This document shows, piece by piece, positions 1-25,212 of a stretch of DNA of 64,000 nucleotides. The position numbers and the translations under genes were made by a program. The notes beneath the pieces were generated by a model. That model worked only from the letters and a program-made list of their open reading frames with translations, was not told the origin of the DNA and did no database searches. Source of the stretch: a virus; the IMG/VR virus record IMGVR_UViG_3300031774_000001; one strand, 5' to 3'. Position 1 is the stretch's first letter, and the number at the start of each line of letters is the position of its first letter.

Positions 1-1
1 T

Positions 2-871
2 TGTGGCAATAGGTCAGACCCTATAGCGTCAAAAGATTTACACGAAATTGTAGAATATTCTTATAGTAGAAATAGTAAAACTAAAATTGTTATTGCAACA
101 AACGGTGGATTAAAAACAACTGAATGGTGGAGTAAATTTGGCAAATTGATGTCAGATAAACAACATCACGTAGTTTTTGGTTTAGATGGATTAGAAGATA
201 CACACCACATATACAGACAAAGAACAAATTTTAATAAAGTAATATCAAATGCAAAAACATTTATACAAAATGGTGGTAAAGCAGAATGGCAAATGTTAAT
301 ATATGAACATAATCAACATCAAATAGATGACGCAAAACAAATGGCAAAAGAAATAGGTTTTGCTAGTTTTAAAGAAGTTTATACTCCAAGATTTTGGTCT
401 AAAGAAGGTCAACGATTAGAATTTAAAGTTGGTGATAAAGATTATCTATTAGAACCAGCTACAATAGAAAAAAATAAAATAGATAATAAGAAACTAGGAG
501 AACATTTTGACCCAAAGAATCCTGATAGAGATAAAGAGGCAGGTTATATTGAGTGTAAAGCATTAAAAATTAATGAGTTTTTTTTAGATTTTGATGGTAA
601 TGTATTGCCTTGTTGTTGGTTGGGTAATAGTTTAAATAGAAAAAATGAAACTTGGTTAAAAGATACTTTGAGATATGCAGATAATATGATGAATTTTTAT
701 GAGCCAAAGGTTATGAATGCTATTGATAATGATTTAACAGAAATACTTTTAGAGTCTATATGGATGAAACAATTACAAAAATCTTGGGATATAGCACCTT
801 GTAAGACCTGTGCTAGGTTCTGTAGTAAAAGGATAAATATTAAGAAACAAGTTAATAGGGAAATGTTATGA
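2..871 (+). CDS. Radical SAM protein with C-terminal SPASM/twitch-like domain (5' truncated by window edge)
   Basis: Frame is open from base 2 (CGNRSDP...IATNGG...VVFGLDG...YRQRTNF), so the gene starts upstream of the window. C-terminal C...PCC...CxxC...C cysteines. The CxxxCxxC motif itself is not in the window. Confidence 0.75.
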   Translation, partial: CGNRSDPIASKDLHEIVEYSYSRNSKTKIVIATNGGLKTTEWWSKFGKLMSDKQHHVVFGLDGLEDTHHIYRQRTNFNKVISNAKTFIQNGGKAEWQMLIYEHNQHQIDDAKQMAKEIGFASFKEVYTPRFWSKEGQRLEFKVGDKDYLLEPATIEKNKIDNKKLGEHFDPKNPDRDKEAGYIECKALKINEFFLDFDGNVLPCCWLGNSLNRKNETWLKDTLRYADNMMNFYEPKVMNAIDNDLTEILLESIWMKQLQKSWDIAPCKTCARFCSKRINIKKQVNREML

Positions 872-1608
872 GTTTAATAGACGCAATGAAATTTAGAGAG
901 AATATTCGTTTTTTTAAACAAGACGAATATCCAACAGAAGTAGAAATTAAAGCTTTAATTAGGGATGCTCACGAATTAGTTCCTCAAAAGAATAATATTG
1001 TTGAGTGTAATATAGATGTATATGGACCTAAATGGGCAAAGGAAAAAGAAAAATTAGTTTTAAGCACAATGTGTGGAGTGTCTAAAGAACATTGGCGTAA
1101 AGGTGGTAAGCACGAAGGTGATTATGATTTATTAAAAAAAATTTACGATAGATGGAGAAAAAAACAAGAGCGTCCTAGAGTTCATAGATATGATCCAGAT
1201 AATAATTTACCATATCCTGATATGCAATTTAATGAACAAGTTAGAGCGCCTTACTTACTAGTTTATACTCAAAGATTAAGACGACCATCCGAAGAGCAAT
1301 TAAAAAGAGGATTTCCAGAATTCGTTTATAAGTTTACTAAATCGGATGATGAAAGTTTGAATTGGTATATATCGGCTGGTATGCACGGAATTAGTCTTAA
1401 TTATTTGGCTGCTGATAGGGGTATATATGGTTCTTTTTGTAAATGTTTTCATTGGGATAAAAATAATGATACAGAAATATTAAAACCCGCTGAAAGAAAA
1501 CCTAAAGATATTGCTTTTATGATTGGTTTAGGATATAGAGATGAAACTGGTTACTATCCTAAAGAAACAAATTATTCAACATCAAGTGAGTATGTGAAAT
1601 GGAAATAA
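868..1608 (+). CDS. Nitroreductase-like (FMN-binding) protein
   Basis: N-terminal RENIRFF (RxSxRxF-like), P-x-KNN, later APYLLV, YLAADRG and C-terminal IGLGY. Confidence 0.6.
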   Translation: MSLIDAMKFRENIRFFKQDEYPTEVEIKALIRDAHELVPQKNNIVECNIDVYGPKWAKEKEKLVLSTMCGVSKEHWRKGGKHEGDYDLLKKIYDRWRKKQERPRVHRYDPDNNLPYPDMQFNEQVRAPYLLVYTQRLRRPSEEQLKRGFPEFVYKFTKSDDESLNWYISAGMHGISLNYLAADRGIYGSFCKCFHWDKNNDTEILKPAERKPKDIAFMIGLGYRDETGYYPKETNYSTSSEYVKWK

Positions 1609-1611
1609 ATT

Positions 1612-2319
1612 ATGAAAATAGTTGCTATTAGAATTGGTGATAAGTACGGTCCCGAATACGAAACATATCTACAAAACAAATTACCACAACACGAATTTAT
1701 TTGGGTAAGAGAACCTTACGATAAAAGAGTTGCTTTACAATGGAATAAAATGTGGGCAATGCAAATGGATATTGATGAACCTATTTGTGTTATTGACATT
1801 GACATATTACTTGTAAATGATTATAATAAACTATTTGATTATCCTGTTAAGAAAGGACAATTTTTAGCAATACCAGGTTGGTGGAGAGATAGTACAAAAA
1901 ATAGTTATAAAATAAATGGTGGATTCTTTAAGTATTATCCAAAAGAGTGTAAGTACATTTATGATAAGTTTATGAAAGATATAGAATACTGGCAACAATA
2001 TTATATCAAAAATGGGACAACAGCAGGGCCTGTAAATGGTGAACAATATTTTGTAGAAGATAGTGCTAATGAAAGATTAGAAGTTATTACAACACCTAAT
2101 AGTTGGTGTACTCGTTGGACATCAAATGAAGATGTAATTTATGGAAAAGATATGACAGAATGGCAAGTAAAAATTTCTCATAAGTATAGAGACCTAACAG
2201 GCAACCCATATATTTACCTAGACAAATTTCATCCAGATATTAAGTTAGTACACTTTACACACTCAATTAATAAACCTACAGAATGGAAAGATTATAATGT
2301 GGTTGCTACTTCAAAATAG
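1612..2319 (+). CDS. Glycosyltransferase (GT-A, GT8-like)
   Basis: KYGPEY, WNKM, DID (DxD), INGGFF, GEQ, VHFT motifs. Confidence 0.7.
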   Translation: MKIVAIRIGDKYGPEYETYLQNKLPQHEFIWVREPYDKRVALQWNKMWAMQMDIDEPICVIDIDILLVNDYNKLFDYPVKKGQFLAIPGWWRDSTKNSYKINGGFFKYYPKECKYIYDKFMKDIEYWQQYYIKNGTTAGPVNGEQYFVEDSANERLEVITTPNSWCTRWTSNEDVIYGKDMTEWQVKISHKYRDLTGNPYIYLDKFHPDIKLVHFTHSINKPTEWKDYNVVATSK

Positions 2320-2767
2320 AAAATACAAAACAAATGAAAATGGAATTGGCACCGTATGTGAAGTATGGATAAATGAAGATAAAGGATTGATTAAAAGATA
2401 TTTTAAATCTGATGGTATTACCGTATCTGGAAAACCAGTAGGTTCTGAAAATCCACCAGAAAGAATTAAAGAGTTATTTGAAAATGAAAAGTATTGGTTA
2501 GAAAAATTAAAAAGTAAATGGATACCAGAAACAGTTGAAATAGGAGATAATTATATTATACAAAAATATTATGGACCAGTTATAGGTCATAATGTAGATA
2601 AATGGACAAAACAAGAGAAAGAATTATTAGAATTTTATAAGAATAATAATTGCAATAAAACAAATCATAATGGTTGGTCTATGACAAATAAAGGAGAACA
2701 ATTAATAGGTTTTGATTTTAAACACGCATTAAAGATTAAAGGAGAACAAAGGATAGCTGTAGTATGA
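2297..2767 (+). CDS. Short protein-kinase-like fold protein (possibly degenerate)
   Basis: G-x-G...V, IKRY, FENE (helix C Glu), IPE, LIGFDF. Canonical HxDxxxxN not seen. Confidence 0.4.
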   Translation: MWLLLQNRKYKTNENGIGTVCEVWINEDKGLIKRYFKSDGITVSGKPVGSENPPERIKELFENEKYWLEKLKSKWIPETVEIGDNYIIQKYYGPVIGHNVDKWTKQEKELLEFYKNNNCNKTNHNGWSMTNKGEQLIGFDFKHALKIKGEQRIAVV

Positions 2768-3351
2768 TTTACACTAAAGAATGGGCGTTTATTCATATAC
2801 CTAAAACTGCTGGACTAAATTTTATATTAAGAATGGAAAAGAAACCAGAAGTTATAAATGCTCAATGGAATTTACAAAAGAAAACTGGACTTAAAGACGT
2901 GAATCATTTACCATTACAATGGTGGTTAGATAGAGGAGAATTAAACAAAGAACAATACATATTTACTTTTGTACGAAATCCATATAGTAGAATTGTTAGT
3001 CTATATAATCATATGTTAATTGAAGGACGTAATATACCAGGATTTAAAGAGTTTATTATGGAGGATATTGTACATACTAAAAATCCTCCTGGTTTAGATT
3101 ATGATTTTGGTTGGCCACAATATAAATCTATTGAGAATAACCAAGGAATAAATGTTAAATGTTATAAAATGGAAACAGAATTGCCTTTAGTTGAAGAGTA
3201 TATAGGATATATATTTACAGACACTAGATATAATGATATGCCACACGCACCTTGGCAAACTTATTACGATAGTGAAACTAAAGAAAAAGTAAACGAAAAA
3301 TATAAAGAAGATTTTAAAAGGTTTAATTATAATGAACACTTATCAATGTAA
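2764..3351 (+). CDS. Sulfotransferase family protein
   Basis: 5'-PSB motif FIHIPKTAG, 3'-PB motif FVRNPYSRIVS, C-terminal YKEDFKRFNY. Confidence 0.85.
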   Translation: MIYTKEWAFIHIPKTAGLNFILRMEKKPEVINAQWNLQKKTGLKDVNHLPLQWWLDRGELNKEQYIFTFVRNPYSRIVSLYNHMLIEGRNIPGFKEFIMEDIVHTKNPPGLDYDFGWPQYKSIENNQGINVKCYKMETELPLVEEYIGYIFTDTRYNDMPHAPWQTYYDSETKEKVNEKYKEDFKRFNYNEHLSM

Positions 3352-3931
3352 AGATGATATAATAAATGCAGATGAAAAAGGGCAACTTTTGTCTGAAGTA
3401 AAGAATATTAGTTTATGGTCTAATAAACTTTCTTACTATGCACCTAAAGATGATACTGGTACAGGTATAAGAGTAATGAAAGTTAGAGAAGATGATGACT
3501 ACCATCAAACAAAAGTATATAAAGAATTTATAAAAAATCAAAAATCTCCTTTAGAAGGTTTGTTTGAAAAATTGGTTAATAAGATTAATCCTAAATTAAA
3601 ATTTTTTGTAGTAGATTATATAAGGTTTGCACCAATGGATGATATTACTATTCATAAAGATACGGATACTGTTCCTGGAAGAGCGTCTTGTATTACTTGG
3701 CCGTTATATCCAGAGTTAAAAGATTTTTCTCCAGTAAAATATTATAATGATGATAAAACTTTTAATGAAGATGTTTATTATCAAGAAAAACCTTTGATTG
3801 TTAGTACTGCTAAAAATCATTGTTGTTTTAACGGTAGTCAAGAAGCTAGATTTACTTTTCAAATTTGTTTTTATGATCCAATAGAAAGATTGGCTGAATT
3901 AGACCAAAAAGGAGAATTGTTTAATGTATGA
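3332..3931 (+). CDS. 2OG-Fe(II) oxygenase-like protein (paralog of 4358-4870)
   Basis: HKD...H...R-x-T-x-Q facial triad pattern. Confidence 0.6.
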   Translation: MNTYQCKDDIINADEKGQLLSEVKNISLWSNKLSYYAPKDDTGTGIRVMKVREDDDYHQTKVYKEFIKNQKSPLEGLFEKLVNKINPKLKFFVVDYIRFAPMDDITIHKDTDTVPGRASCITWPLYPELKDFSPVKYYNDDKTFNEDVYYQEKPLIVSTAKNHCCFNGSQEARFTFQICFYDPIERLAELDQKGELFNV

Positions 3932-4361
3932 TTTAACAAATATATTAGTTGAGATTGAAACTTTACCTAAATGGGACGAGCAAATATGCTTACAAGGTAC
4001 AGAAACTAATAAAGACCCCTTTGCTGGTATTAATTCATTGTTAACAACACCAGAAAAAGAAATAGAATTTAAATATAATTTATTTGATTTACCTTATATA
4101 AATTCTATTATAAAAGAACATAATTTATATAGAGTTAGATTAATGAATTTAAAAAGTAAGACTTGTTATTCTTATCATCAAGACCAATGTAAACGATTTC
4201 ATATACCTTTAATTACAAATGATAATTGTTTCTTTGTTGTTGATGATAAAGTTAAAAGATATCCAGCAGATGGTAATTATTATATAATTGATACAGATAA
4301 AAAACATACTGCTGTTAATGCTTCTTGGGAAGATAGAATTCATTTAGTAGGTAATTTATGA
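3924..4361 (+). CDS. Asp/Asn beta-hydroxylase-like 2OG-Fe(II) oxygenase
   Basis: RVRLM...YSYHQD...RFHIPLITN...HTAVN...RIHLV. Confidence 0.75.
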   Translation: MYDLTNILVEIETLPKWDEQICLQGTETNKDPFAGINSLLTTPEKEIEFKYNLFDLPYINSIIKEHNLYRVRLMNLKSKTCYSYHQDQCKRFHIPLITNDNCFFVVDDKVKRYPADGNYYIIDTDKKHTAVNASWEDRIHLVGNL

Positions 4362-4870
4362 ACACATACCAATGTAAAAATGATATAATAAATGAAGATG
4401 AAAGAAAGCAACTTTTATCTCAAGCAAGAGGTTGTGATTATTATAATTATACAACTGATAAAGGAACAAATACAGGATTACAAGTTGTTAAACTACCTAT
4501 AGATGGTTTAGTTAAAAAATTGGTTAATAAGACCAATTCTAAATTGAAATTTTTTATAGCAGATTTTATAAAGTTTGATCCTAAAGTTGGAATTCATCCT
4601 CATAAAGATGACCACCTTGGAAGAGCTTCTTGTATTACTTGGGCATTGTATCCATCATTAAAAGATTTTTGTCCTATAAAATATTATAATGAAGATAAAA
4701 CTTTTAATGAAGAAGTATATTATGAAAAGAAACCTTTAATTATTACGACTAGAAATAATCATAGTTGTAGTAATGAAAGTGAAGTAGAAAGATATACTTT
4801 TCAATTGTGTTTTTATGATCCAATAGAAAAATTAGCGGAGTTAGACCAAAAAGACGAGTTGTTTATATGA
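4358..4870 (+). CDS. 2OG-Fe(II) oxygenase-like protein (paralog of 3332-3931)
   Basis: PHKD...NHSC...RYTFQ. N- and C-termini nearly identical to 3332-3931. Confidence 0.6.
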   Translation: MNTYQCKNDIINEDERKQLLSQARGCDYYNYTTDKGTNTGLQVVKLPIDGLVKKLVNKTNSKLKFFIADFIKFDPKVGIHPHKDDHLGRASCITWALYPSLKDFCPIKYYNEDKTFNEEVYYEKKPLIITTRNNHSCSNESEVERYTFQLCFYDPIEKLAELDQKDELFI

Positions 4871-5298
4871 TAATAAAAGAGATAACACACGAACAAGCAT
4901 TAGAGTGGATATCTAAACAAGATTTAGAGGATACTTGGCATACAGATTTTAAAGAATGGAAAAAACATTTAATTTTAGCAGCTAAATATTGGCCTTGGGT
5001 TAAAAAGTTTTATAGAGGTAAGAATAATTGGTTAGGGGCCTTTGATGATGAGTTATGTGGTGTTTATTGGTATACAATTGTTGAAAATGAAATGTATGAT
5101 GGTTTTTTAATATCAAGAAAACAAGGTGCAGGATTAAAATTAGCAAGAGAGTTATATAATAGAACAAAAGGTCAATGGAGATATAATTGGACAATGTGTA
5201 GTAAAGAATATTTAAAGTTTAATAATAGATTAGGATTTCAAGGAACACAATATGCTAATATTACTCCTTGGTATGAGGTATATTTACTATGGCGATAA
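4867..5298 (+). CDS. Putative GNAT-fold acyltransferase
   Basis: WLGAFDDELCG strand, RKQGAGLKL (motif-A-like), FNNRLGF (motif-B-like). Confidence 0.5.
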   Translation: MIIKEITHEQALEWISKQDLEDTWHTDFKEWKKHLILAAKYWPWVKKFYRGKNNWLGAFDDELCGVYWYTIVENEMYDGFLISRKQGAGLKLARELYNRTKGQWRYNWTMCSKEYLKFNNRLGFQGTQYANITPWYEVYLLWR

Positions 5299-6386
5299 AA
5301 GAGATATTAAGTTTTAATAAGATACATAGTGGCGCTGAAGAAGTAATATCTGCTAAGTCTTATGAGTTAACGTTTAAAGATGGCAAGGTATTAAAAGATA
5401 CAATGTCTGGTCTTTGGAACGTACCTTTAGGTTATTCTAATACAAATATAAAACAAGTTATGAAAGAACAATTAGATAAGTTGCCATATGCAAGTAATTT
5501 TTCTGGTTATCATAGTCAAATAACTGAACAATATGCTGATGAAATTTGTAAGAGAACAAATATGAGTAGAGTATATTTTACAAATAGTGGAAGTGCTGCT
5601 GTTGAAACAGCAATTAAATTATCAGGTAAGAATATAGCAGTATGTGGAAAACATAGTTATCACGGTTCTACAATATTAAGTGCTAATGCAAGTGACCAAG
5701 ATATTAATAAATTTTGGAAGATACAAAATCCTATGAGTGTTCATAAGTTTGAAGATTCAGATGACCTAATACAAATATCAAATGGTTTATTTGATTTGTC
5801 TTTTGTAATTATAGAACCTGTTGTGGGAGCGGGTGGTGTTTATGAGTGGCAACCTGAAATATGGGATATATTAAAAGAGTATCAACAAAGAGGTGGTGTA
5901 GTTATACTAGATGAAACAGTTACAGGTTTTGGTAAACTAGGTACTATGTTTGCCTTTGAAAAATATAATATAGAACCAGATATGATTGTATTAGGAAAGG
6001 GTATAACTAATGGATATTTTCCTATGGGCGCTTGTTTAATAAATGAAAGAATAGAAAAGTCAGTTAAAATGTTTAATCACGGTTTTACTTATTCAGGACA
6101 TCCTGTTGGTTGTGCCGCTGCTTTAGAAACAATTAGAGAGATAGATAAATTAGATTTAGAACATAAACAAATAAATGGTATTACAAGACAGTATGGTTGT
6201 ATGGGTGCAATAGATTTTGAAACTCCAAGACAATCATTAACATTTATTAAAAAAATGAGAGAGAAAGGTTATATCTTGGAAGATGGATCAGAAAACGTAT
6301 CAACTGCTGTATTTTGTTTACCATATGTCTTTCAAGAACACAACGAATTTGAGGAGGCAATAAAATGTACCATAACGGATATGTAG
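5289..6386 (+). CDS. Class III PLP-dependent aminotransferase
   Basis: SGLWNVPLGY, FTNSGSAAVETAIK, SYHGST, EPVVGAGG, DETVTGFGKLG, PDMIVLGKG (PLP Lys), HGFTYSGHP. Confidence 0.92.
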   Translation: MAIKEILSFNKIHSGAEEVISAKSYELTFKDGKVLKDTMSGLWNVPLGYSNTNIKQVMKEQLDKLPYASNFSGYHSQITEQYADEICKRTNMSRVYFTNSGSAAVETAIKLSGKNIAVCGKHSYHGSTILSANASDQDINKFWKIQNPMSVHKFEDSDDLIQISNGLFDLSFVIIEPVVGAGGVYEWQPEIWDILKEYQQRGGVVILDETVTGFGKLGTMFAFEKYNIEPDMIVLGKGITNGYFPMGACLINERIEKSVKMFNHGFTYSGHPVGCAAALETIREIDKLDLEHKQINGITRQYGCMGAIDFETPRQSLTFIKKMREKGYILEDGSENVSTAVFCLPYVFQEHNEFEEAIKCTITDM

Positions 6387-7180
6387 AAACTTTACCTGTA
6401 CAATTGCCAGAAGTAACTCAATTGATTAAAGAATATTTTAAAGAACATTATAATCACAATTATATTTGTAGATATAAAAAAGAATTAATTGAAGAATTTA
6501 TAAAAGATTTTATACCTTGGTTAAATAAAGGTCATTTAAAATTTAAAGGTTTAGAAGATTTTAAAAATGTTTATATAACAAATGGTGTTACCGAGTTTAT
6601 TCAAATTGCAATGGTTGAACATAGTTTAAGACCTATATGTGTTGAGGACGATTATCAAGCATTTAGTGCTAATGCTTCAGCTTATATTCGTTCAGGTATT
6701 AAATTAAATAATAAAATAAATGTAATTACTTTGCCCTTTTGTAAAACGGCAGACATACATCCTAAAACCTGTGAGATATTAGACACCCCTTGTTGGGTTG
6801 ATTTAGCTTGGGCAGGTAATAGTGGCATTAAAGAAACTTTTGATTTAAGTAAAGCTGAGTATGCGTCATTTAGTTTTAGTAAATGTTTTGGTGTGCAATA
6901 TCATAGAATAGGAATTTGTTTTTCTAAAAAACCTATAAAAATTATGGAATTACAAAAAGGATTTGAGTATGTTAATATAGTAGGTGTGGAATTAATGAAG
7001 TATATGATGAACAAAATATCACCTTCATATTTGTACGATAAATATAAGGATATAGCGCATAAAATTTGTGCTGATAACAATTTACAACCTACCAAAAACT
7101 TATGGATAGGTTTAGAAGATGGTAAAAGAAAACCACTAATAGAATACTGGATGAAATATTTAAATGAGAACAGCAAATAA
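6365..7180 (+). CDS. PLP-dependent enzyme, fold type I (class I/II aminotransferase- or decarboxylase-like)
   Basis: ITNGVTE, VDLAW (DxA), SFSKCFG...RIG (PLP Lys). Confidence 0.7.
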   Translation: MYHNGYVETLPVQLPEVTQLIKEYFKEHYNHNYICRYKKELIEEFIKDFIPWLNKGHLKFKGLEDFKNVYITNGVTEFIQIAMVEHSLRPICVEDDYQAFSANASAYIRSGIKLNNKINVITLPFCKTADIHPKTCEILDTPCWVDLAWAGNSGIKETFDLSKAEYASFSFSKCFGVQYHRIGICFSKKPIKIMELQKGFEYVNIVGVELMKYMMNKISPSYLYDKYKDIAHKICADNNLQPTKNLWIGLEDGKRKPLIEYWMKYLNENSK

Positions 7181-7931
7181 AGAATTTTTTGACTATACAA
7201 AAAGCCTTCCCTTCAAAGATATAACTCATTTTTGGGATATACCTTATAAGCAAATATTAGAAGAAGTAAAACTAGTTGATGAAAAACATTGGAGTAGACC
7301 TTTTAATGTTGATAATAATAAGGTAAAGGAATTAGGACTAGACGATAAATCAAGTCTTAATCATTATCCTGGATGGGATGGAAAGTTAATAGAAGCACAC
7401 GGTTGGAAAACTTTATGTATGCTAAATGAAACAGGAGATAGTACGGATCAAATTTATAATTTTCCACCTGTATTTAATACAGCAAATGATTATAAAAAAG
7501 GTTTAAAAGATTTTAAAGTTGAAAGATACTGGACAAATGCTGCTGAATTTTGTCCTACACTAGTTAAATTTTTTAAAGAAGTAGTATCAAAGTATATGCA
7601 ATTTGTTCAAATATCTGTAACCAGATTAGATGGTGGTGGAGTTATTACTGAACACAATGATATACCAATTGATAGTAGAAATCTATTAGAAAGTAAACAT
7701 ATGCATATGTATGATATGCTGAATACTTTTAACCTATGTTTAAATCACGTTGATGGTTGTTATGGGGTATTTGATAATAAGGTTATACCTGCTTATGAGG
7801 GTTGTTTAAGATGGACAAATATAGGTAAGCAACATTGGGTATTAAATATGAATAGACAGCCACAATATCAAATTATATGGAATGGAATTTATAAAAAAAG
7901 TTTTAGACGACTTGTAGAGGAGAATAAATAG
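7164..7931 (+). CDS. Asp/Asn beta-hydroxylase-like 2OG-Fe(II) oxygenase
   Basis: CPTLVKF, RLDGGGVITEHND (HxD), HWVLN. Confidence 0.65.
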   Translation: MRTANKEFFDYTKSLPFKDITHFWDIPYKQILEEVKLVDEKHWSRPFNVDNNKVKELGLDDKSSLNHYPGWDGKLIEAHGWKTLCMLNETGDSTDQIYNFPPVFNTANDYKKGLKDFKVERYWTNAAEFCPTLVKFFKEVVSKYMQFVQISVTRLDGGGVITEHNDIPIDSRNLLESKHMHMYDMLNTFNLCLNHVDGCYGVFDNKVIPAYEGCLRWTNIGKQHWVLNMNRQPQYQIIWNGIYKKSFRRLVEENK

Positions 7932-7935
7932 TAGT

Positions 7936-8634
7936 ATGGCGATTATAGACAAACACAAAGGTGTAAAAATAGACAAAGCATTTTCAGATAGACACGTGGA
8001 GATGTTTGCTTTCTTTGATAAGCACGGTATAGATGTTGAAGTTAATGATAACTTCAAAGATTTTCAACATTTTTTAACTCATTTAACAGCAGACAATTAT
8101 CCTTATAGATATGATGAATTTTTTAATGCAAGTAATTTAGTTGGCAATGATACTGCTTATGCATTATATTTAAAGAAAGATGATAAAATTATAGCTACAT
8201 ATGCTGCTAAAGAATTAGAGTTTTCATCTTTTTTTGGTGATATTAGAGAATTTGCAGGTGGACGTTTTGATAAAGTTACAGAAGATTTAAATGAAAATAG
8301 TTTTAGCAAATTAGGGACTTGTATGTATAGTTCTTGTCAATGGGTAGATACAGAATATAGAGGCAAACGTTTTGGTATGATATTAGACCATTTAAAGAAA
8401 AATATATGTTTTGATATTTTTGAAGCTGATATGAATTATGCAATTCATAAAGAACAATTTGCTGATTATCATATAAAAGGATTGCATTATGATGAAAGTA
8501 AATGGTTAGCAACTGTAGAAAAAGGTGATGTAGGTGGTGCAGGTGAAAAGAAAGATAAAGTTTACCATTTAACTTGGGTTACAAAAGAATCTTGGGCGAA
8601 TAAATTAAATGATGTTAGAAAGTTATATATTTAA
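7936..8634 (+). CDS. GNAT-fold / N-acyltransferase-like protein
   Basis: WVDTEYRGKRFG acyl-CoA-binding motif A. Confidence 0.5.
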   Translation: MAIIDKHKGVKIDKAFSDRHVEMFAFFDKHGIDVEVNDNFKDFQHFLTHLTADNYPYRYDEFFNASNLVGNDTAYALYLKKDDKIIATYAAKELEFSSFFGDIREFAGGRFDKVTEDLNENSFSKLGTCMYSSCQWVDTEYRGKRFGMILDHLKKNICFDIFEADMNYAIHKEQFADYHIKGLHYDESKWLATVEKGDVGGAGEKKDKVYHLTWVTKESWANKLNDVRKLYI

Positions 8635-9166
8635 ACCATCAGAATTACCACAACAATATCGTATTCAAATTAACGACATTATAAAAGATGTTGTTGAAAG
8701 TAAAACAGACCAATACTGGAAAAATTATACAAAGTTTAATCTTGATGAGCAAACTGCTATATCTATAAATTGTGATGGAGATGATGTAAAGGTTATATCA
8801 TCAATATATCATAGAAATTTTTATGGAAAAGATGTCTATAGATTAATGAATAGGAGTTTGTATTCTAAAGATTATAGAGAAACTGGTGGTTCTAAAATGA
8901 GAAATGGTGAACATACTGCCCACCCAATGATAGCACAACAGATAAATTTTGTTGAAGACCTTAAACCTAAATTCTATTTCATAAGCAGACAAAGAACAAA
9001 TACTAGATGGTTAAAGTATTATTTTGATACTTTTAATAAGGAGTATAATAGGAATTTGGTTGTTAGCGACCAGCAGTATTGGGTTTGTGATGGTAGTAAA
9101 GAGGGTTGCTTACAGACAATTATCTACCCAAAAGATATGGAAGTACCTTTGAAATCTTATAAATAG
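8609..9166 (+). CDS. Hypothetical protein, possibly GNAT-like
   Basis: Coupled ORF. RLMNRSLYSKDYR resembles a degenerate GNAT motif A region. Confidence 0.35.
   Translation: MMLESYIFKPSELPQQYRIQINDIIKDVVESKTDQYWKNYTKFNLDEQTAISINCDGDDVKVISSIYHRNFYGKDVYRLMNRSLYSKDYRETGGSKMRNGEHTAHPMIAQQINFVEDLKPKFYFISRQRTNTRWLKYYFDTFNKEYNRNLVVSDQQYWVCDGSKEGCLQTIIYPKDMEVPLKSYK
9158..9165 (+). promoter_or_regulatory. T4-type late promoter TATAAATA
   Basis: Exact gp55 consensus at the start of the structural region. Confidence 0.75.
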
Positions 9167-9196
9167 TATTATGAATAAATTAAATGGAGATATTGT

Positions 9197-9400
9197 ATGA
9201 TAACAATTGACGGAAAAGAGTATGATGAACAAAAGTTTAGTCCTGAATTACAAAATTACATAGCAGTAAGACAAGAAATTCAAGTAAGCAAGACTAGACA
9301 TTTAATTGAGATTGAAAAAATAGATGTTTTAACCAAGCATTATAACGAAAAAATAGTCAAGTTGATTAAAAAAGAAGTACCAGAATCCGAGAAAAAATAA
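9197..9400 (+). CDS. Small coiled-coil hypothetical protein
   Basis: SD GGAG. MITIDGKEY start followed by an amphipathic helix. Confidence 0.6.
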   Translation: MITIDGKEYDEQKFSPELQNYIAVRQEIQVSKTRHLIEIEKIDVLTKHYNEKIVKLIKKEVPESEKK

Positions 9401-13408: not shown

Positions 13409-13416
13409 TATAAATA
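13409..13416 (+). promoter_or_regulatory. T4-type late promoter TATAAATA
   Basis: Exact consensus, intergenic; a second copy lies at 13266-13273. Confidence 0.7.
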
Positions 13417-13435
13417 TTAGGGAAAAAGAGAGAAA

Positions 13436-16400
13436 ATGGCAGATTTCAAACTAGGACGAATAAAATTTAAATGGAGAGGTGATTGGCAAGCAAGCACCAC
13501 TTACTCACTTGATGATATAGCAAAATATGGTGGTAATACTTATGTGTGTATTCAAAACCACGTATCACCAGCAGCCGAAACAGATTTTTATACAAGTCCT
13601 GGAACATATACAGATTACTGGCAAGTACACGGCGAATCAGTTTATTTCAAAGGTGCTTATGCCAATGCAACTTGGTACAAATTAAACGACCTAGTTAGTT
13701 ATGGTGGTAAACAGTACCGTTGTACAACAGCTCACACATCAGCAAGTTTAGTTTTAGACTCTGCAAAATTTGAACAATTTGTAGATAGTATTAACTTTAC
13801 AGGTGATTATGCTTCTTCAACTCAATACAAATTAAATGATATAGTTAAATACGGTGGAAGACAATATAGATGTACAACTGAATACACATCAGCAGCTGGT
13901 GGTGATCCAAATATAGACTTAACAAAATTTACTTTATTTAGTGAAGGTTTAGCATTTAAAGGCGACTTTCAAGTTAACACATTTTACAAATTAGATGACG
14001 TTGTAAAATTTGGTTCATACCAATATAGATGTACAACTGCTCATACTTCAGGTGCCAATCAATCAGATTTCGCTCAAGCAAACTTTTCTGTTTATTCAGA
14101 AGGTTTACAATTTGAAGATTCTTATAATGCTTCAACTCTTTACTCAAAAGGAGATGTAGTAACTTATGGTGGATATTCTTATGCATATATTAATGCTGAA
14201 GAATCTACAGGACAAACTCCTGCCGACAATTCTTATTGGGATGTAATAACAACAGGTTTCAATGCAACTGGACTTTATGTCCACGGAACATTATACAAAA
14301 CTGGTGATACAGTTCAGTATGGTGGTAATTCTTATGTCTGTATATTAGACGCACAAAATCAAAGACCATCACAAGCAAGTGGTGCTGTTAATTCAACTTA
14401 TTGGAAAGGTGTTGTAGAAGGATTTAAATGGCAAGGTAACTATAGTGCTGTTACAACATACACTATTGGCGATACAGTAAGATTTGCTTCAAACTCATAT
14501 GTTAATTTAAAAGACCAAGTTCTAAATGTAGAACCAGGATCAGACGCAACTACTTGGCAAGCAATTGCTCAAGGAGATACTGCTGCTGTAATGACATCAA
14601 TCGGAGATATGATTGTTCAAGATGGTGGTGGTGTTGCAAGATTACCTCTCGGACTTCCAGGTGGTGTATTAACTAATGATGGAGATGATATTTTATGGAG
14701 TGGAATTTCAGGTAAAAACGTTTTATGGGTTGCTCCTTCAGGAACAGACGGTGGACCAGGAACAGAAGCATTGCCTTATAAAACATTGGCGTATGCTTGT
14801 ACACACGCAAAATCAAATTCAATTAGAGAATATGAAAATGTAACTGGTGGTACAGGTGGAACACAAAATTTATATGATGAAGTTCAAGGGTATGCTTCAA
14901 AAGAATTAACAATTACAGCAACTCCTAGTACAACAACACTAGAAATTCAATTAGGAACATCAGCATATGCACACACATATGTTAGTGGTGGTACAATTAG
15001 AAAAGCAAACGACACTACATTAGCAGTATCAAACGGTGTTTATAATCATAGTACAGGAATTATAACACTTACAACTACAACACACTCATTATCAACAGGT
15101 GATAAAATTAGAGTATGGGGATTAAATTATACTTGCGCTAAAGGTGCAAAAACTTATCCAGAAGTTGGAAGTCCTTCACTTTATAGAGTTAATACAAGTG
15201 GCGGAGTTTTAAAAATAGACATTGTTAACGGCGGTGCTAAACACAATGTAGGTGATAAAATTAGAATTGATGGTGCAGATATCGGTGGTGCAACTGCCTT
15301 AAATTTTGATGTTAAGAGTGTTGCAGGAGATATAATCAGAATTAAAAACGGTACTTTTAAAGAAAAATTACCAATGGTAGTACAAGAAAACGTTTCTGTA
15401 GTTGGTGAATCTTTAAGAAATACAATAATAATGCCAGCAAGTGGAACTGGTTCTCAAATTAAAACAATAGAATTAACTAATAACGTAAATAGTGCTACTA
15501 ACGGACAATACAAATATTTACACCCGAAGAAAGTAGAAAAACCTTATACAGTTCAAACTGTAGATAACGCAACTACATTTACAATTGATGTTGGTACAGA
15601 CGCTAGAGCTCACACATATGTTGATGGTGGAACAGTTACAAAATCCGACTATGCTTCTTTAGATATAACTAACGCTGTTTACAATAATGGCACAGGAATT
15701 ATTACAATAACAACTGCTTCAGCACATAGTTTATCAGCAAGTGATGTTGTTAAAATAGCAAATATAAAATATCATTGTAAAGATGGTGAAAAGATTTATC
15801 CAAAAGTTGGAACTGGTTCAGTATGGAGTGTAGTTGTAAAAGGTGGAATTGCAGAAGAAATTATAACATACCACGGTGGTGCAGGTTATCACGTTGGTGA
15901 AGTAATTACATTAGCAGCTGCTGATGTTGGTAACGGTGGCGACTTAACATTTACAGTTAAATCTTTAGAAGATAACAACGCTTCAAATATGTTCTTATTA
16001 AATGATAGGAACAATATGAGAAATATGACTTTCGTAGGTCTTTCTGGACAAAAACGTTCTGGAGGATTATACAAAGTAACACAGGTTGGTTCAACAACTC
16101 AATTTGTAGTTTCTTTAGGAACTTCACAATACGCTCACACTTATATTAGTGGCGGTGGAGTAATAAAAGTTGGCGCAGAAGGAACTAGATTCACTCTTGC
16201 TAACGCTAGTTATGCACACTCAAATGGTGATATGACAATAACTACAAACGAAGTAAACGGTTTAACAGTTGGTGATTATGTAACTCTTGGAAAAATGAAA
16301 TTTACTTGCGAATTAGGTGAGAAAATATATCCAAGTGGTCCAATACAACAAGCGATTATGTCTTTAGACCCAGCAGGAAATATTAAAAACAAATCACCAT

Positions 16401-22191: not shown

Positions 22192-22854
22192 ATGTACGAT
22201 ATCAAAGAATTAACAGCAGAAATTCATCAAAACGCAGAAAGACAAGAGTTTGTCAAGACTCTTATGTCTGGTTCTATTGAACCTAATCTTTACGCCACAT
22301 ATCTTTACAACCAATTACAATGCTATTCTGTATTAGAAAAATATGGAATGGAGAATTCTCTATTTCGTACAACTCCTAATCTACCTAGAGGAGAACATAT
22401 ACATTATGATTACAAAGCATTATGGACAGGTGAAGGTGAGCCAACTATAACTCAAAGTACAAAAGATTATGTTGCTCATATTGAAACAATCAAAGAAGAC
22501 GCAGAAAAATTATACGCTCATATCTATACTAGACATTTAGGAGATGTATCTGGTGGTCAAATGATAATGAAAAGAACGCCAGGACCTAATCGTTATTACA
22601 AATTTAAGCATAAAGAAATAAAAGAATATAAACGAATAGTAAAAGAAACAATAAACAGTTATTTAAATGTTTATAAACTTAATATTTTAAATGAGTGTAA
22701 ATTTTGTTTTGCAAGTGCTACAGCATTGTTTAAAGAAATGAACGAAATGGATACTTCTAAACCTTTAATATTAACCAATGAAGTATTTGACGAAAATAAT
22801 AAAGATACAGAAAATGATCCTTTCAAAGGAACAAGTATTGAAGGAAGAGATTAA
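22192..22854 (+). CDS. hemO: Heme oxygenase
   Basis: KELTAEIHQNAE (proximal His), AHIYTRHLGDVSGGQ distal helix signature. Confidence 0.92.
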   Translation: MYDIKELTAEIHQNAERQEFVKTLMSGSIEPNLYATYLYNQLQCYSVLEKYGMENSLFRTTPNLPRGEHIHYDYKALWTGEGEPTITQSTKDYVAHIETIKEDAEKLYAHIYTRHLGDVSGGQMIMKRTPGPNRYYKFKHKEIKEYKRIVKETINSYLNVYKLNILNECKFCFASATALFKEMNEMDTSKPLILTNEVFDENNKDTENDPFKGTSIEGRD

Positions 22855-23531
22855 TGATTTGGGAAAGATTAATCAAACTTGAAAAAGACATAATTGCTAT
22901 ACTTGATAAACGTTGTAAAGAATATAACGAAGAAGGTATGGATAGATTTAATAATGATAATTGGACCAACCGAACTTGGTCTAATATGAGTGTAAGACGT
23001 GCTCACGTAGACGTAGTGGATGCTAGAGAAACAAAAGGTCTTTGGATGGCACACATATGTTTATTTCCAAATTTAACAAATGGTGGTCCAATTTATGGAT
23101 TTGATGTTATTGCAGGAAAGAAAAAGGTGACAGGTTGTTTTCACGATTTTAGTCCACTATTATTAAAAGAACACCCATTAACAAAGTATTTTATAGAAGA
23201 AACCAAATGGTATAAACCATCTAAAAAAAGAGAATTGCCAGATTGGGCATTAGAAATTTTTAGTCCAGGTATGATTGCCGCTGGTAATATATCAGATGAA
23301 AGAGAATTAAATCAAATTTGTACTCTTGCTACGTCTAATTTAGAAAATTATCTTGACAAAATTGGTCATTATAATAGCGATTCAAAAAAAGAAGATGTTA
23401 TAAGAGCTCAAAACTTCTATTGCGAGCACCAACAACAAAATCCACACACCCCTAGAGTAATGCGATCCCTTGGATTGCCTGAAGATGATATAAGAGTATT
23501 CTGTACTGATAATTTGTTTCCGAAGATATAA
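22854..23531 (+). CDS. pcyX: Ferredoxin-dependent bilin reductase, PcyX/PcyA-like
   Basis: RRAHVD, MAHICLFP (His67), PIYGFDVI (Asp84), HDFSP, RELPDW, IFS, QQQNPHT. Asp53 at the PcyA Glu76 position. Coupled to hemO. Confidence 0.85.
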   Translation: MIWERLIKLEKDIIAILDKRCKEYNEEGMDRFNNDNWTNRTWSNMSVRRAHVDVVDARETKGLWMAHICLFPNLTNGGPIYGFDVIAGKKKVTGCFHDFSPLLLKEHPLTKYFIEETKWYKPSKKRELPDWALEIFSPGMIAAGNISDERELNQICTLATSNLENYLDKIGHYNSDSKKEDVIRAQNFYCEHQQQNPHTPRVMRSLGLPEDDIRVFCTDNLFPKI

Positions 23532-23564: not shown

Positions 23565-24389
23565 ATGGCAAAACCAGCAACCAGAGAACAGTTAAAACAG
23601 TACGCTTTAAGAGCTTTAGGAAAACCAGTAATAGAAATTAACGTAGATGACGACCAGTTAGAAGATAGACTGGACGAAGCATTACAATATTTTGCTCAAT
23701 ATCACTATGAAGGTGTTAAAAGAACCTACCTAAAATACAAGTATACTCAAGCAGATAAAGATAGAATTACAGGTACAGGTACAACTGAAGTTGCTACTAA
23801 AACTTATGGTGATTCAACTACTGTATCAAGTGAGTGGGTAGAAGGTAATCAGTATATCATTGTTCCTGAATCAGTTATATCAGTAGTTAATATTTTTCCA
23901 TTTTCAAACAAAGGTAATTTAAATTTATTTGATGTTAGATATCAATTAAGATTAAATGACTTATATGATTTTTCTTCAACGTCTGTTATTAATTATGATG
24001 TTGTATTAAGACATTTAGATTTTTTAGACCACGTATTAGTTGGTGAAAAACCAATGAGATTTAATCAACACGATAATAGATTGTATATAGATATGGATTG
24101 GAAAAATGATTTACAAGTTGATGAATTTCTTGTAATAGAGTGTTTTAGACAATTAGATCCAGAACAATTTACAGATGTCTATGATGATTTATTTTTAAAG
24201 AAATATGTTGTTGCTTTATTTAAAAAACAATGGGGCGCTAATTTAGCAAAATTTGGTGGTGTTCAAATGATAGGTGGGGTTACTTTAAACGGACAAGAAA
24301 TTTATTCACAAGCATTAGCAGATATAGAAACTTTAGAACAAAAAATCAGGTCACAATACGAATTAAATCCAACCTTTATGATAGGATAA
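23565..24389 (+). CDS. gp13: Neck protein gp13
   Basis: LRALGKPVIEINVDDDQ, KKQWGANL, GGVTLNG; synteny. Confidence 0.92.
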   Translation: MAKPATREQLKQYALRALGKPVIEINVDDDQLEDRLDEALQYFAQYHYEGVKRTYLKYKYTQADKDRITGTGTTEVATKTYGDSTTVSSEWVEGNQYIIVPESVISVVNIFPFSNKGNLNLFDVRYQLRLNDLYDFSSTSVINYDVVLRHLDFLDHVLVGEKPMRFNQHDNRLYIDMDWKNDLQVDEFLVIECFRQLDPEQFTDVYDDLFLKKYVVALFKKQWGANLAKFGGVQMIGGVTLNGQEIYSQALADIETLEQKIRSQYELNPTFMIG

Positions 24390-24393
24390 TGCT

Positions 24394-25212
24394 ATGCCAG
24401 TTAATCATTACTTTCAAGGTGGACGAGGCATAGGCAATGCTGCCGAAAAAAGACTACACGAAGATATAATTGTTGAAGGTCTTAAAATTTACGGTCAGGA
24501 TGTCTTTTACTTACCACGAACATTAGTCAATAAAGATTTAATACTAGGAGAAGATGTAACTAGTAAGTTTGACGATTCATTTTCAATAGAAATGTATTTT
24601 GAAAACAATACAGGTTTTGCAGGTGAGCAAGAAATCATAAGTAAATTTGGATTAGAAATTAGGGACGACACAACACTTGTTGTTGCAAAAAGAAGTTTCA
24701 ATAATTTAGTTGCAAATAAAGCAAACTTAATTGCTTCAGGAAGACCAAATGAAGGTGATGTAATTTATGTTCCTTTAATGGGTTCTTTCTTTGAAATTTT
24801 ATTTGTAGAAGACCAGGAACCTTTCTATCAATTAGGAAACTTACCAGTTTATAAATTAAAAGTAACTCGTTGGGAATATTCAAGTGAAAAACTTGATACA
24901 GGTTTAGAAGTTATTGACCAACACGAAGACGCAGCTACTTTAGACCAATTACAGTATAGAGTAAAATTAGAATACGGTCAAGAGGCTATGACAGGTGCAG
25001 GATCATTAACGTTAGAAGACTACTTTGACCATTCAACAGGTCAACCATCTTTCTTAATGAAAGAAGATTATACTGCTTCTAATATACAAACACAATCTCC
25101 ATATGCAGATAACCTAGACTTGAATAAAGAGGCAGGATATGATACAGTAGGAACAGCAGATGATATATTAGACTTTACTGAAAGAAATCCGTTTGGGGAG
25201 ATTGATGAGTAA
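24394..25212 (+). CDS. gp14: Neck protein gp14
   Basis: YGQDVFYLPR, SKFGLEIRD, RPNEGDVIY, PFYQLG. Confidence 0.92.
   Translation: MPVNHYFQGGRGIGNAAEKRLHEDIIVEGLKIYGQDVFYLPRTLVNKDLILGEDVTSKFDDSFSIEMYFENNTGFAGEQEIISKFGLEIRDDTTLVVAKRSFNNLVANKANLIASGRPNEGDVIYVPLMGSFFEILFVEDQEPFYQLGNLPVYKLKVTRWEYSSEKLDTGLEVIDQHEDAATLDQLQYRVKLEYGQEAMTGAGSLTLEDYFDHSTGQPSFLMKEDYTASNIQTQSPYADNLDLNKEAGYDTVGTADDILDFTERNPFGEIDE

Follow-up and report, generated by a model that had tools for sequence, protein, structure and literature searches.

A hypervariable island of pelagimyophages, the host recognition cluster (HRC), has been described between VrlC and gp14 and contains glycosyltransferases and radical SAM (rSAM) cassettes (Zaragoza-Solas et al. 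2020, PMC7029224). The description is a broad one, of glycosyltransferases and LPS-related genes, and for the closest pair of phages gradual divergence was reported, not whole replacement. Alternative non-homologous gene sets between conserved flanks, with several versions per population and enzymes for sugar and amine tailoring, also characterize the replacement flexible genomic islands for bacterial O-antigens and surface glycans and the metaviromic islands of marine phages (PMC3909814). The cluster considered here shares these features, but its carrier is a lytic phage, and the window, the whole stretch of 64,000 nucleotides that was analysed, contains no flippase or polymerase (Wzx/Wzy), no nucleotidyltransferase and no verified glycosyltransferase. 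The virion glycosylation operons of mycobacteriophages reportedly carry recognisable glycosyltransferases, with the glycan said to have been shown on capsid and tail proteins; the present cluster likewise has phage transferases beside structural genes that could decorate virion proteins. It differs from the operons in the lack of a verified glycosyltransferase.

Position of the cluster

The window is T4-like pelagimyophage genome, of the group infecting SAR11; its major capsid protein and that of Pelagibacter phage Mosig share 91% identity, the neck genes lie at 23565-25209 and tail-fibre synteny with Mosig starts at 9197. As a preliminary description had it, 14 consecutive ORFs occupy 2-9166, all on the + strand, with 11 of the 13 junctions overlapping and gaps of 3-4 nt at the other two; the 5' end of orf1 lies beyond the left edge of the window, where the gene is truncated. 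The tail-fibre block does adjoin the cluster, with orf15-23 being 34-78% identical to Mosig_00071-00063. The stretch 2-9166 makes up the right-hand, enzyme-rich portion of the HRC island, with which it shares the phage group, the position (among structural genes, upstream of the neck gene gp14 and beside the tail fibres), the lack of synteny between relatives and the tailoring enzymes, rSAM cassettes included. Since the island has been published, novelty is lower than first assumed; the published account is without the six-gene GNAT/aminotransferase/PLP/AspH module, the late-promoter boundary and the exchange among phages of more than 99% identity that are described below (PMC7029224).

The positional equivalent in Mosig EXVC030M, between the same flanks, is Mosig_00072-00097 (MT647606). 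Enzyme classes common to both include rSAM (three in Mosig), nitroreductase (two), AspH (two) and N-acetyltransferase, and Mosig also has a PLP protein like that of orf11 (27% identical) and a protein like that of orf3 (30%). It differs in being partly on the opposite strand and in lacking orthologues of orf10, orf13 and orf14, in place of which it has a TauD-type dioxygenase, methyltransferases, a DegT aminotransferase and a carbamoyltransferase.

A left-hand mosaic and a six-gene module

Seven of the enzyme assignments hold (orf1, orf5, orf7, orf10, orf11 and orf13, with orf12 below threshold), among them the rSAM/SPASM enzyme, the sulfotransferase, the class III aminotransferase and the second PLP enzyme of the preliminary description; weak leads lie behind five more (orf2, orf6, orf8, orf9 and orf14). 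What remains of orf1 (2-871) encodes the C-terminal 289 amino acids of a radical SAM/SPASM-type enzyme, matching PHROG 21308 (E 3.2e-18) and Pfam SPASM (E 0.006). Its NCBIfam matches are twitch and SPASM rSAM models, every one below cut-off, the best two being twitch rSAM and heme b synthase, with several RiPP maturases also present; a PDB sequence search gave no match. The assignment of orf2 (868-1608) as a nitroreductase-like flavoprotein is weak: the window protein itself has no Pfam or NCBIfam match, while homologues in relatives L004 and L068 match Nitroreductase/TM1586_NiRdase (E 0.004-0.06) and one in G004 does so at E 3.8e-4 in a single-record search.

The glycosyltransferase and the kinase of the earlier proposal were not confirmed. 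A very abundant marine-phage orphan family includes orf3 (1612-2319), with an invariant D62-x-D64; no Pfam family is assigned to any of its clusters, which number at least 1010 at 90% identity, and its profile found no Pfam or PDB match. For a GT-A reading it has only the DxD motif, and hhalign against neighbouring GT8-like genes gave a probability of 0.9%. Among the 70 IMG/VR loci of the family, just 4 have orf2 alongside and 8 have orf7, and orf9-14 accompany none of them. A conserved orphan of 156 amino acids, orf4 (2297-2767), has homologues in L004 and L005 (42-44% identity); the kinase-like label is unsupported, family searches of orf4 and these homologues having given no match of any kind.

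The sulfotransferase encoded by orf5 (2764-3351; Sulfotransfer_2) has a PKTAG 5'-PSB-type loop, matches PF03567 at E 1.2e-10 (42 bits against a cut-off of 22) and, among PHROGs, a Gal-3-O-sulfotransferase; PF03567 is found in most of the 76 clusters of its homologues, and IMG/VR holds no close relative. Of the four Fe/2OG-type oxygenases proposed, the one that stands clearly is orf7 (3924-4361), a short AspH-type enzyme of the Asp/Asn beta-hydroxylase family (PF05118, Asp_Arg_Hydrox, E 1.8e-9, 38 bits), 40% identical to Mosig_00118 and 76% to its L004 homologue. It is flanked on both sides by a duplication, orf6 (3332-3931) and orf8 (4358-4870), putative Fe/2OG oxygenases 53% identical to each other and sharing an HxD..H..R type of motif (HKD...NH...RFTFQ in orf6, which has no Pfam match); the repeats, 3332-3942 and 4358-4884, are 78-86% identical in nucleotides. 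A homologue of orf8 at 69% identity occurs in L129, L130 and L132, and L004, the closest relative bearing the module described next, lacks orf5, orf6 and orf8. By comparison of the relatives, orf1-8 are a mosaic of independently moving cassettes with changing neighbours.

To the right, orf9-14 (4867-9166) constitute a conserved module of six genes: the order 9-10-11-12-13-14-15 is retained in about 25 uncultured viral contigs at 34-93% identity, five of them having 13 and 14 reversed, and its right end is always the late promoter of the tail-fibre block. Gene combinations in relatives, on which the preliminary description had made its pathway depend, are thus non-conserved in one half of the cluster and kept, together and in order, in the other. 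The first gene, orf9 (4867-5298), is GNAT-like as a weak lead, with many GNAT clusters at 0.95 in the ESM Atlas and a QGAGLKLA motif; it stays upstream of orf10 in L004, L005, L007-L009 and L027. A compact class III aminotransferase of omega-amine type, 365 amino acids long, is encoded by orf10 (5289-6386; PF00202, Aminotran_3, E 3.5e-51); the solved structures closest to it are those of omega-, polyamine:pyruvate- and putrescine transaminases (E 1e-40 to 1e-34), and its best NCBIfam model is the daptide aminotransferase, the top matches all lying below cut-off. The product of orf11 (6365-7180) is a miniature fold-type-I PLP enzyme of 271 amino acids, with an invariant S170-F-S-K173 (the SFSK lysine); its AF2 model (pLDDT 88.7) led Foldseek to HisC, C-S lyases and aminotransferases (E 3e-8), and VIA gave Z 16.8 with many subfamilies tied.

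An AspH-like cupin or Fe/2OG oxygenase is a weak lead for orf12 (7164-7931), where PF05118 falls below cut-off (E 0.005) and all of 10 orthologues share H164-x-D166 and H224. Up to three GNAT-like proteins had been proposed, and the firm one is orf13 (7936-8634), a GNAT-fold acyltransferase (AF2 pLDDT 90.2, Foldseek E 3e-7, VIA Z 13.2) with PA3270, SpeG, agmatine NAT and FdhC as structural neighbours; like those of orf11, its matches are tied across subfamilies, with Z values differing by no more than 1. It is the most divergent gene of the module, and its family comprises 75 clusters, metagenomic throughout and without relevant Pfam annotation, three short partial matches having unrelated domains. 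An orphan family of 236 representative clusters, possibly a degenerate GNAT, includes orf14 (8609-9166): none of 39 members has a Pfam family, the sole PDB profile match is a GNAT at E 0.1, and there is a weak GNAT-like ESM lead. In L018, orf11 and orf12 are 93% identical to those of the window and orf13 48%, which indicates recombination inside the block.

Exchange at the late promoter

The right boundary of the variable island is the T4-type late promoter of orf15, TATAAATA, at 9158-9165 on the + strand, overlapped by the stop codon of orf14; 12 relatives have kept it, at 25-37 nt ahead of orf15. The window has 15 perfect copies of this element, all on the + strand and none within 1-9157; where a mapped gene start is close by, it follows the element by 20-32 nt. 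The late-promoter-like element noted earlier at 7936 is an imperfect one, AATAAATA, only 5-6 nt ahead of the ATG, though in three relatives the corresponding position has a perfect TATAAATA, so that it may still be a promoter.

The boundary of recombination coincides precisely with the late promoter that heads the tail-fibre block. Phage G001 is 99.35% identical to the window over 28,042 nt downstream and unrelated, with other enzymes, upstream of 9157; individual strains can do without the whole of 2-9166. L110, 99% identical downstream, has upstream a Mosig-type cassette (M76-TauD-MTase-NAT-AspH), and in G001, L110, L111, L113, L120 and L135 similarity to the window begins at 9154-9158. Both the window-type and the G001-type island coexist in one metagenome, DNA run X9, where coverage depth rises from about 18 within the island to about 31 downstream of it, and where a contig starting at 9157 has, as its unaligned upstream part, a loose end matching G001. 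The window is not a chimera, as 14 DNA runs, contributed by at least 8 studies, contain 98-100% of the words sampled from its genotype; contigs from RNA libraries also span the island, for which DNA carry-over may account.

At least 19 non-homologous right ends were found among 81 unique loci, and the enzyme set of the window is one version of the island among 19 or more that can replace each other, the whole block being swapped between near-identical phages. Genes for rSAM/SPASM, nitroreductase and AspH proteins reappear in most versions, and GT8-like genes occur in versions other than that of the window.

What the island may do

That the island is composite and exchangeable and contains a conserved module of six genes is very probable; joined to the proposed function, glycoconjugate tailoring, the statement becomes tentative, at slightly under an even chance. 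The likeliest role is to tailor, differently from strain to strain, an amine-bearing sugar or surface glycoconjugate. Several observations touch on such sugar logic: the carbohydrate-type sulfotransferase of the window, the GT8-like genes of other versions and the DegT-type aminotransferase and carbamoyltransferase added in Mosig fit it, while orf10, being class III and not DegT type, and the polyamine enzymes among the nearest solved relatives of orf10 and of orf13 do not. The lack of a nucleotidyltransferase, flippase, polymerase and verified glycosyltransferase in the window likewise speaks against it. DegT-type aminotransferases are the usual type for sugars; the rSAM/SPASM, nitroreductase and AspH families are equally typical of peptide or protein modification and of sugar chemistry.

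The same polyamine relatives (for orf13, SpeG and the agmatine and polyamine N-acetyltransferases) would suit an auxiliary metabolic cassette, unlikely but deserving of attention, in which the module produces or alters a free small amine derived from a polyamine or an amino acid. The omega-transaminase would interconvert amine and aldehyde, the second PLP enzyme decarboxylate or transaminate, the oxygenase hydroxylate and the GNATs N-acylate, for nitrogen economy, DNA condensation or host signalling. The module has no glycosyltransferase and travels as a self-contained unit, but the structural matches of the GNAT and PLP proteins are tied over many subfamilies, the best NCBIfam matches include no EctB, Dat or other pathway-specific model, the place is always the tail-fibre island, and sibling phages have unrelated enzyme sets instead, unusual for a core metabolic aid. 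Comparably improbable, and as deserving of attention, is that the rSAM/SPASM, nitroreductase-like and AspH-type enzymes, the GNATs and the daptide-like aminotransferase mature virion proteins, the neighbouring fibres for instance, or a peptide product made by the ribosome. AspH-family enzymes are classic protein Asp/Asn hydroxylases, and the sub-threshold maturase and daptide models, the recurrence of three of these classes in most versions and the adjoining fibre genes point the same way. Gaps of at most 4 nt throughout 868-9166 leave no room for a precursor gene, however, Pfam searches of the ORFs detected no PqqD/RRE domain, and the island interior, in contrast to virion genes, has no perfect late promoter; moreover, the fibre block is 99-100% identical among phages with quite different enzyme sets, so that no co-variation of enzyme and substrate is seen.

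The preliminary description was right about tailoring enzymes, but its proposal that all 14 genes and those to their left form one obligate pathway to a single product is more improbable still: tight overlaps on a single strand and the recurrence of the exact arrangement in the 14 runs speak for it, and against it relatives retaining orf9-14 combine orf2, orf3, orf5, orf7 and orf6/8 otherwise or lack them, and L018 records recombination within the block. Least probable is hypermodification of phage DNA bases, of the thymidine or 7-deazaguanine kind, whose clusters are said to include the same broad classes of PLP enzyme, rSAM, acetyltransferase and flavoenzyme. A weak QueC-like match in L004 is also in its favour, but it meets with an unverified kinase (orf4) and with no hydroxymethylase, DpdA or aGPT-Pplase seen in the stretch, and swaps between phages 99% identical elsewhere would give genomes that are otherwise the same a different DNA chemistry. 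SAR11 hosts, besides, reportedly have next to no restriction systems (PMC7029224).

On the glycoconjugate reading, the island would operate as surface-glycan loci of bacteria do. A conserved SDR epimerase/dehydratase, homologues of which stand at the island flank in L004, L113, L128, L130 and Mosig, may provide from the left an activated keto-sugar or similar scaffold, which strain-specific cassettes would then aminate, N-acylate, hydroxylate, sulfate or transfer. In the version of the window, orf10 and orf11 would add amino groups, the GNATs acylate these and orf12 hydroxylate. This would yield a variable glycoconjugate, placed on the surface of the infected cell or on the virion, its variation perhaps kept up by frequency-dependent selection.

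The island and its right-hand boundary

At the major capsid protein (36565-37905) the window shares 91% identity with Pelagibacter phage Mosig EXVC030M (Mosig) and 73-77% with phages HTVC008M and Melnitz, and on sequence grounds the genome is that of a T4-like pelagimyophage, within the pelagimyophage/cyanomyophage group. Phages of SAR11 rank with the most numerous marine viruses, and the hypervariable island that they carry is believed to determine which phage infects which host. From 9197 onward the fibre genes are syntenic with Mosig_00071 to Mosig_00063 (34-78% identity), bearing out the preliminary description's placing of the enzyme genes of 2-9166 against the tail-fibre region, and the neck genes lie at 23565-25209; this order, fibres from 9197 and then neck genes, matches the published position of the right side of the host recognition cluster (HRC), the hypervariable island of pelagimyophages. 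VrlC falls outside the window; L004, an IMG/VR relative that bears the six-gene module orf9-14, has a left flank like Mosig_00099-00096, genes that in Mosig adjoin VrlC. As a kind, the island is already known: the region has been published as lying between VrlC and gp14, with glycosyltransferases (GTs) and radical SAM (rSAM) cassettes, and host-surface modification was proposed for it (PMC7029224). In the preprint of Buchholz et al. we found no text on the island region. What is new is a discrete, self-contained module of six genes, whose families are unannotated and which was not seen in any cultured phage; an island boundary exact to the promoter; and the replacement of whole cassettes between phages that share over 99% identity and occur together in a single sample.

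Fourteen ORFs (orf1-14) lie on the + strand between 2 and 9166, with overlaps at 11 of the 13 junctions and gaps of 3-4 nt at the remaining two, the consecutive and mostly overlapping arrangement originally described. Orf1 extends beyond the left window edge, so that the cluster does continue to the left as had been stated, and among the 14 ORFs we detected neither a transporter nor a regulator nor a scaffold synthase, again in agreement. The G+C content of the island (28-30%) was rejected as a distinctive mark, other non-structural parts of the window having equal values.

The nearest viral record in the collection searched, G001, is 99.35% identical to the window over 28,042 nt (9157-37198). 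Upstream the two are unrelated: G001 has four rSAM genes there, of which one encodes a SPASM domain, together with a GT8-like, a methyltransferase and an orf7-like gene. The switch point coincides exactly with a late promoter (TATAAATA, 9158-9165) that shares bases with the stop codon of orf14. Other relatives' loci (L110, L111, L113, L120 and L135) are 82-99% identical downstream, with homology beginning at 9154-9158 in each. Upstream, L110 has a Mosig-type cassette (M76, TauD-like, methyltransferase, N-acetyltransferase and AspH genes, 74-86% identity), and island gene content is not syntenic among relatives, with G001, L110, L111 and Mosig all differing upstream of 9157. The place of 2-9166 is taken in Mosig by another enzyme island, of 19 kb (Mosig_00072-00097), linked to that of the window by weak, paralogue-level matches only (26-40%). 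When the 1.5 kb upstream of the 9158-9165 promoter was clustered over 81 unique loci, the right ends fell into at least 19 unrelated types; in an anchor search that had no bias toward the module, only a small minority of loci carried it. In other versions of the island the last gene is of an AspH-like, nitroreductase or rSAM/SPASM type.

The window has 15 perfect TATAAATA sites, every one of them on the coding strand and none within 1-9157; those next to mapped gene starts are 20-32 nt upstream. The late-promoter-like element noted earlier ahead of orf13 (start at 7936) proves in the window to be AATAAATA, 5-6 nt from the ATG; three relatives (L004, L005 and L012) have a perfect TATAAATA at the matching spot, and an internal late start at orf13 is therefore possible, with atypical spacing. 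Sigma-70 promoter and terminator scans gave results at or below chance level. Transcription of the island probably enters for the most part from its left side.

In 14 DNA runs, drawn from eight or more studies, 98-100% of the sampled words of the exact island are present, and it is therefore not a chimera. In the DNA metagenome run X9, depth is ~18 across the island and ~31 downstream of 9157, and a contig starting at 9157 has an unaligned upstream part of G001-type sequence; both versions therefore coexist in one sample. Depth over orf10 in X9 (5138-6538) is 31-39, roughly twice the value elsewhere in the island, and other island versions there seem to share a near-identical aminotransferase gene. 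In three RNA libraries, contigs at least 99% identical to the island span much of it, which is compatible with transcription and not proof of it; such contigs give neither expression ranking nor strand, and may include DNA carry-over, and because of these limits the uncovered parts in the RNA-library runs X16 and X17 carry no meaning.

Within 13409-13436, an X17 RNA contig stops at 13427 in a loose run of 19 A's, just past orf22 and between a late promoter (13409-13416) and the start of a 1550-aa fibre gene; the tail may mark a polyadenylated RNA 3' end or be a priming artefact. That fibre gene contains an internal repeat (14969-15178 and 15608-15820, ~70% nucleotide identity), also found in G001, L120 and L135. 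Between the fibre and neck genes, at 22192-23531, is a pair encoding a heme oxygenase and a PcyX-like bilin reductase, which share 67% and 72% identity with Mosig_00054 and Mosig_00053. Beside its bilin pair Mosig has a run of 2OG oxygenases, a ferrochelatase and an endonuclease V; Mosig_00059 and Mosig_00060, the two of these genes that were compared, have no match in the window.

A conserved module and a mosaic left part

The 14 genes had been taken as one coherent pathway, a view that comparison of gene neighbourhoods does not sustain: orf9-14 (4867-9166) are a conserved right part and orf1-8 a mosaic left part whose genes occur in changing combinations, and the 14 genes are not one unit. 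Orf10 and an orf13 profile, used as queries against IMG/VR, retrieved ~25 independent contigs. The order orf9-10-11-12-13-14-15-16-17-18 is kept in every long-enough contig, at 34-93% identity, with the order of orf13 and orf14 reversed in five contigs and an extra 2OG-type gene between them in some. In L018 the orf11/12 homologues are 93% identical, yet orf13 is at 48%, and recombination therefore occurs inside the module too.

The orf3 family is very large and marine (at least 1010 clusters); among its 70 loci in IMG/VR, an orf2 homologue stands beside it in 4, orf7 in 8 and orf9-14 in none, while an orf3-like gene with an adjoining orf1-like rSAM gene is a recurrent pair in several other island versions. 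L004, the closest module-bearing relative, is without orf5, orf6 and orf8. Between its orf2- and orf3-like genes it has a weak QueC-like match (5215-5949, E 0.003), a gene absent from the window. No close relative of the orf5 sulfotransferase was found in an IMG/VR scan; its exact sequence (protein record P0196) is recorded on 122 contigs, the longest of which, at 173,605 bp, may match the complete genome of the phage in size. Megablast of 1-9200 against GenBank phages gave no match; tblastn against phages gave none for orf13 and, for orf11, Mosig alone (27% identity), and orthologues of orf10, orf13 and orf14 were not found in any GenBank phage record.

Enzyme assignments

The rSAM/SPASM protein (orf1), sulfotransferase (orf5), class III aminotransferase (orf10) and second PLP enzyme (orf11) of the preliminary description are all firm assignments, as are orf7 (AspH family) and orf13 (GNAT fold). 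The model of the 271-aa orf11 protein (pLDDT 88.7) matches fold-type I PLP enzymes with a VIA Z of 16.8 across 244-254 residues, and K173 of its SFSK motif is invariant in 10 orthologues; orf11 is thus predicted to be a fold-type I PLP enzyme with a Schiff-base lysine, its top structural matches being tied across subfamilies. The orf13 protein, which is without a Pfam match by sequence, is modelled (pLDDT 90.2) with a GNAT fold (VIA Z 13.2, rmsd 3.2 over 169 residues), and in its CoA-binding beta4-alpha3 loop, R142-G-K-R-F-G147, G147 is invariant and G143 nearly so; fold and loop together place it, by prediction, in the GNAT superfamily. Of the up to three GNAT-like proteins proposed it is the firm one. 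Orf9 and orf14 are leads, the latter from a family of 236 representative clusters without Pfam annotation (no match in a Pfam search across 39 members) whose sole PDB profile match is a GNAT at E 0.1.

Four Fe/2OG-type oxygenases had likewise been listed; orf7 holds, and motifs make candidates of orf12 (AspH-like, invariant HxD..H) and of orf6 and orf8, 53% identical paralogues with an HxD..H..R motif that bracket orf7. Orf6 and orf8 form a diverged duplication around orf7 (3332-4884; 78-86% nucleotide identity in three segments), and relatives retain orf7 without them. The nitroreductase-like flavoprotein, orf2, stays a lead. Orf3 has the DxD motif of its proposed GT-A class and no support from Pfam, PDB or hhalign, the last giving no significant match to GT8-like neighbours, and Pfam GT8 matches in relatives' records fell on neighbouring genes, not on orf3; that assignment is unsupported, and a kinase for orf4, for which no kinase match was found, was dropped for want of support. 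Profile-to-PDB searches with orf3, orf9, orf11, orf12, orf13 and orf14 gave nothing significant by sequence.

What the island may modify

The reading we favour, and hold tentatively, is that the island tailors an amine-bearing sugar or glycoconjugate in a manner that varies between strains; to this orf9-14 would supply amination, N-acylation and hydroxylation. Three observations point to sugar chemistry: an SDR at the left flank, the DegT aminotransferase and carbamoyltransferase of the Mosig island, and the carbohydrate-type sulfotransferase in that of the window. The SDR epimerase/dehydratase lies at the left flank in L004 (E 7e-27), with homologues in L113, L128, L130 and Mosig; within 2-9166 there is no NDP-sugar dehydratase or epimerase, and the 14 ORFs gave no Pfam or NCBIfam match to Wzx/Wzy, ABC export or polymerase genes. 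The main rivals are a free-amine or polyamine module and protein or peptide modification. The first is unlikely; in its favour, the solved proteins closest to orf10 are omega-, polyamine- and putrescine transaminases. An ectoine-like reading (GNAT, aminotransferase, cupin, 2OG) was rejected, no Ect model being among the best matches. Protein or peptide modification also seems improbable, and its RiPP form is opposed by the absence of any gap above 4 nt between 868 and 9166 and of any visible small ORF, which leaves no precursor peptide gene there, and by orf1, which is below the curated cut-off for every named rSAM maturase family (best 18-27 bits against 170-650, its truncation lowering the scores); orf10 scores 187.6 bits against the daptide-type aminotransferase NF041821, below the curated cut-off of 450. 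A single pathway of all 14 genes is less likely, indeed very doubtful, and DNA hypermodification would be less likely too, to the point of being highly improbable; as to its thymidine form, orf4, the proposed kinase, gave no kinase match.

Phages that differ in their enzyme sets have fibre proteins 99-100% identical to one another, which argues against an obligate partnership of enzymes and fibres and is still compatible with optional decoration. It is conceivable, if quite unlikely, that the virion itself is what the island diversifies enzymatically: swappable cassettes would decorate sequence-identical receptor-binding proteins, placing strain-specific acylated amines, hydroxyls, sulfate and sugars on them. 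If that were true, a phage would alter its host range, or its resistance to host countermeasures, by enzyme swap, not by fibre mutation. With whole-cassette exchange, coexisting versions and the module, what was a vague 'variable region' becomes a set of discrete, testable units, and the identity of the product would show whether it is a surface glycan, a small amine or the virion itself that is diversified by marine phages.
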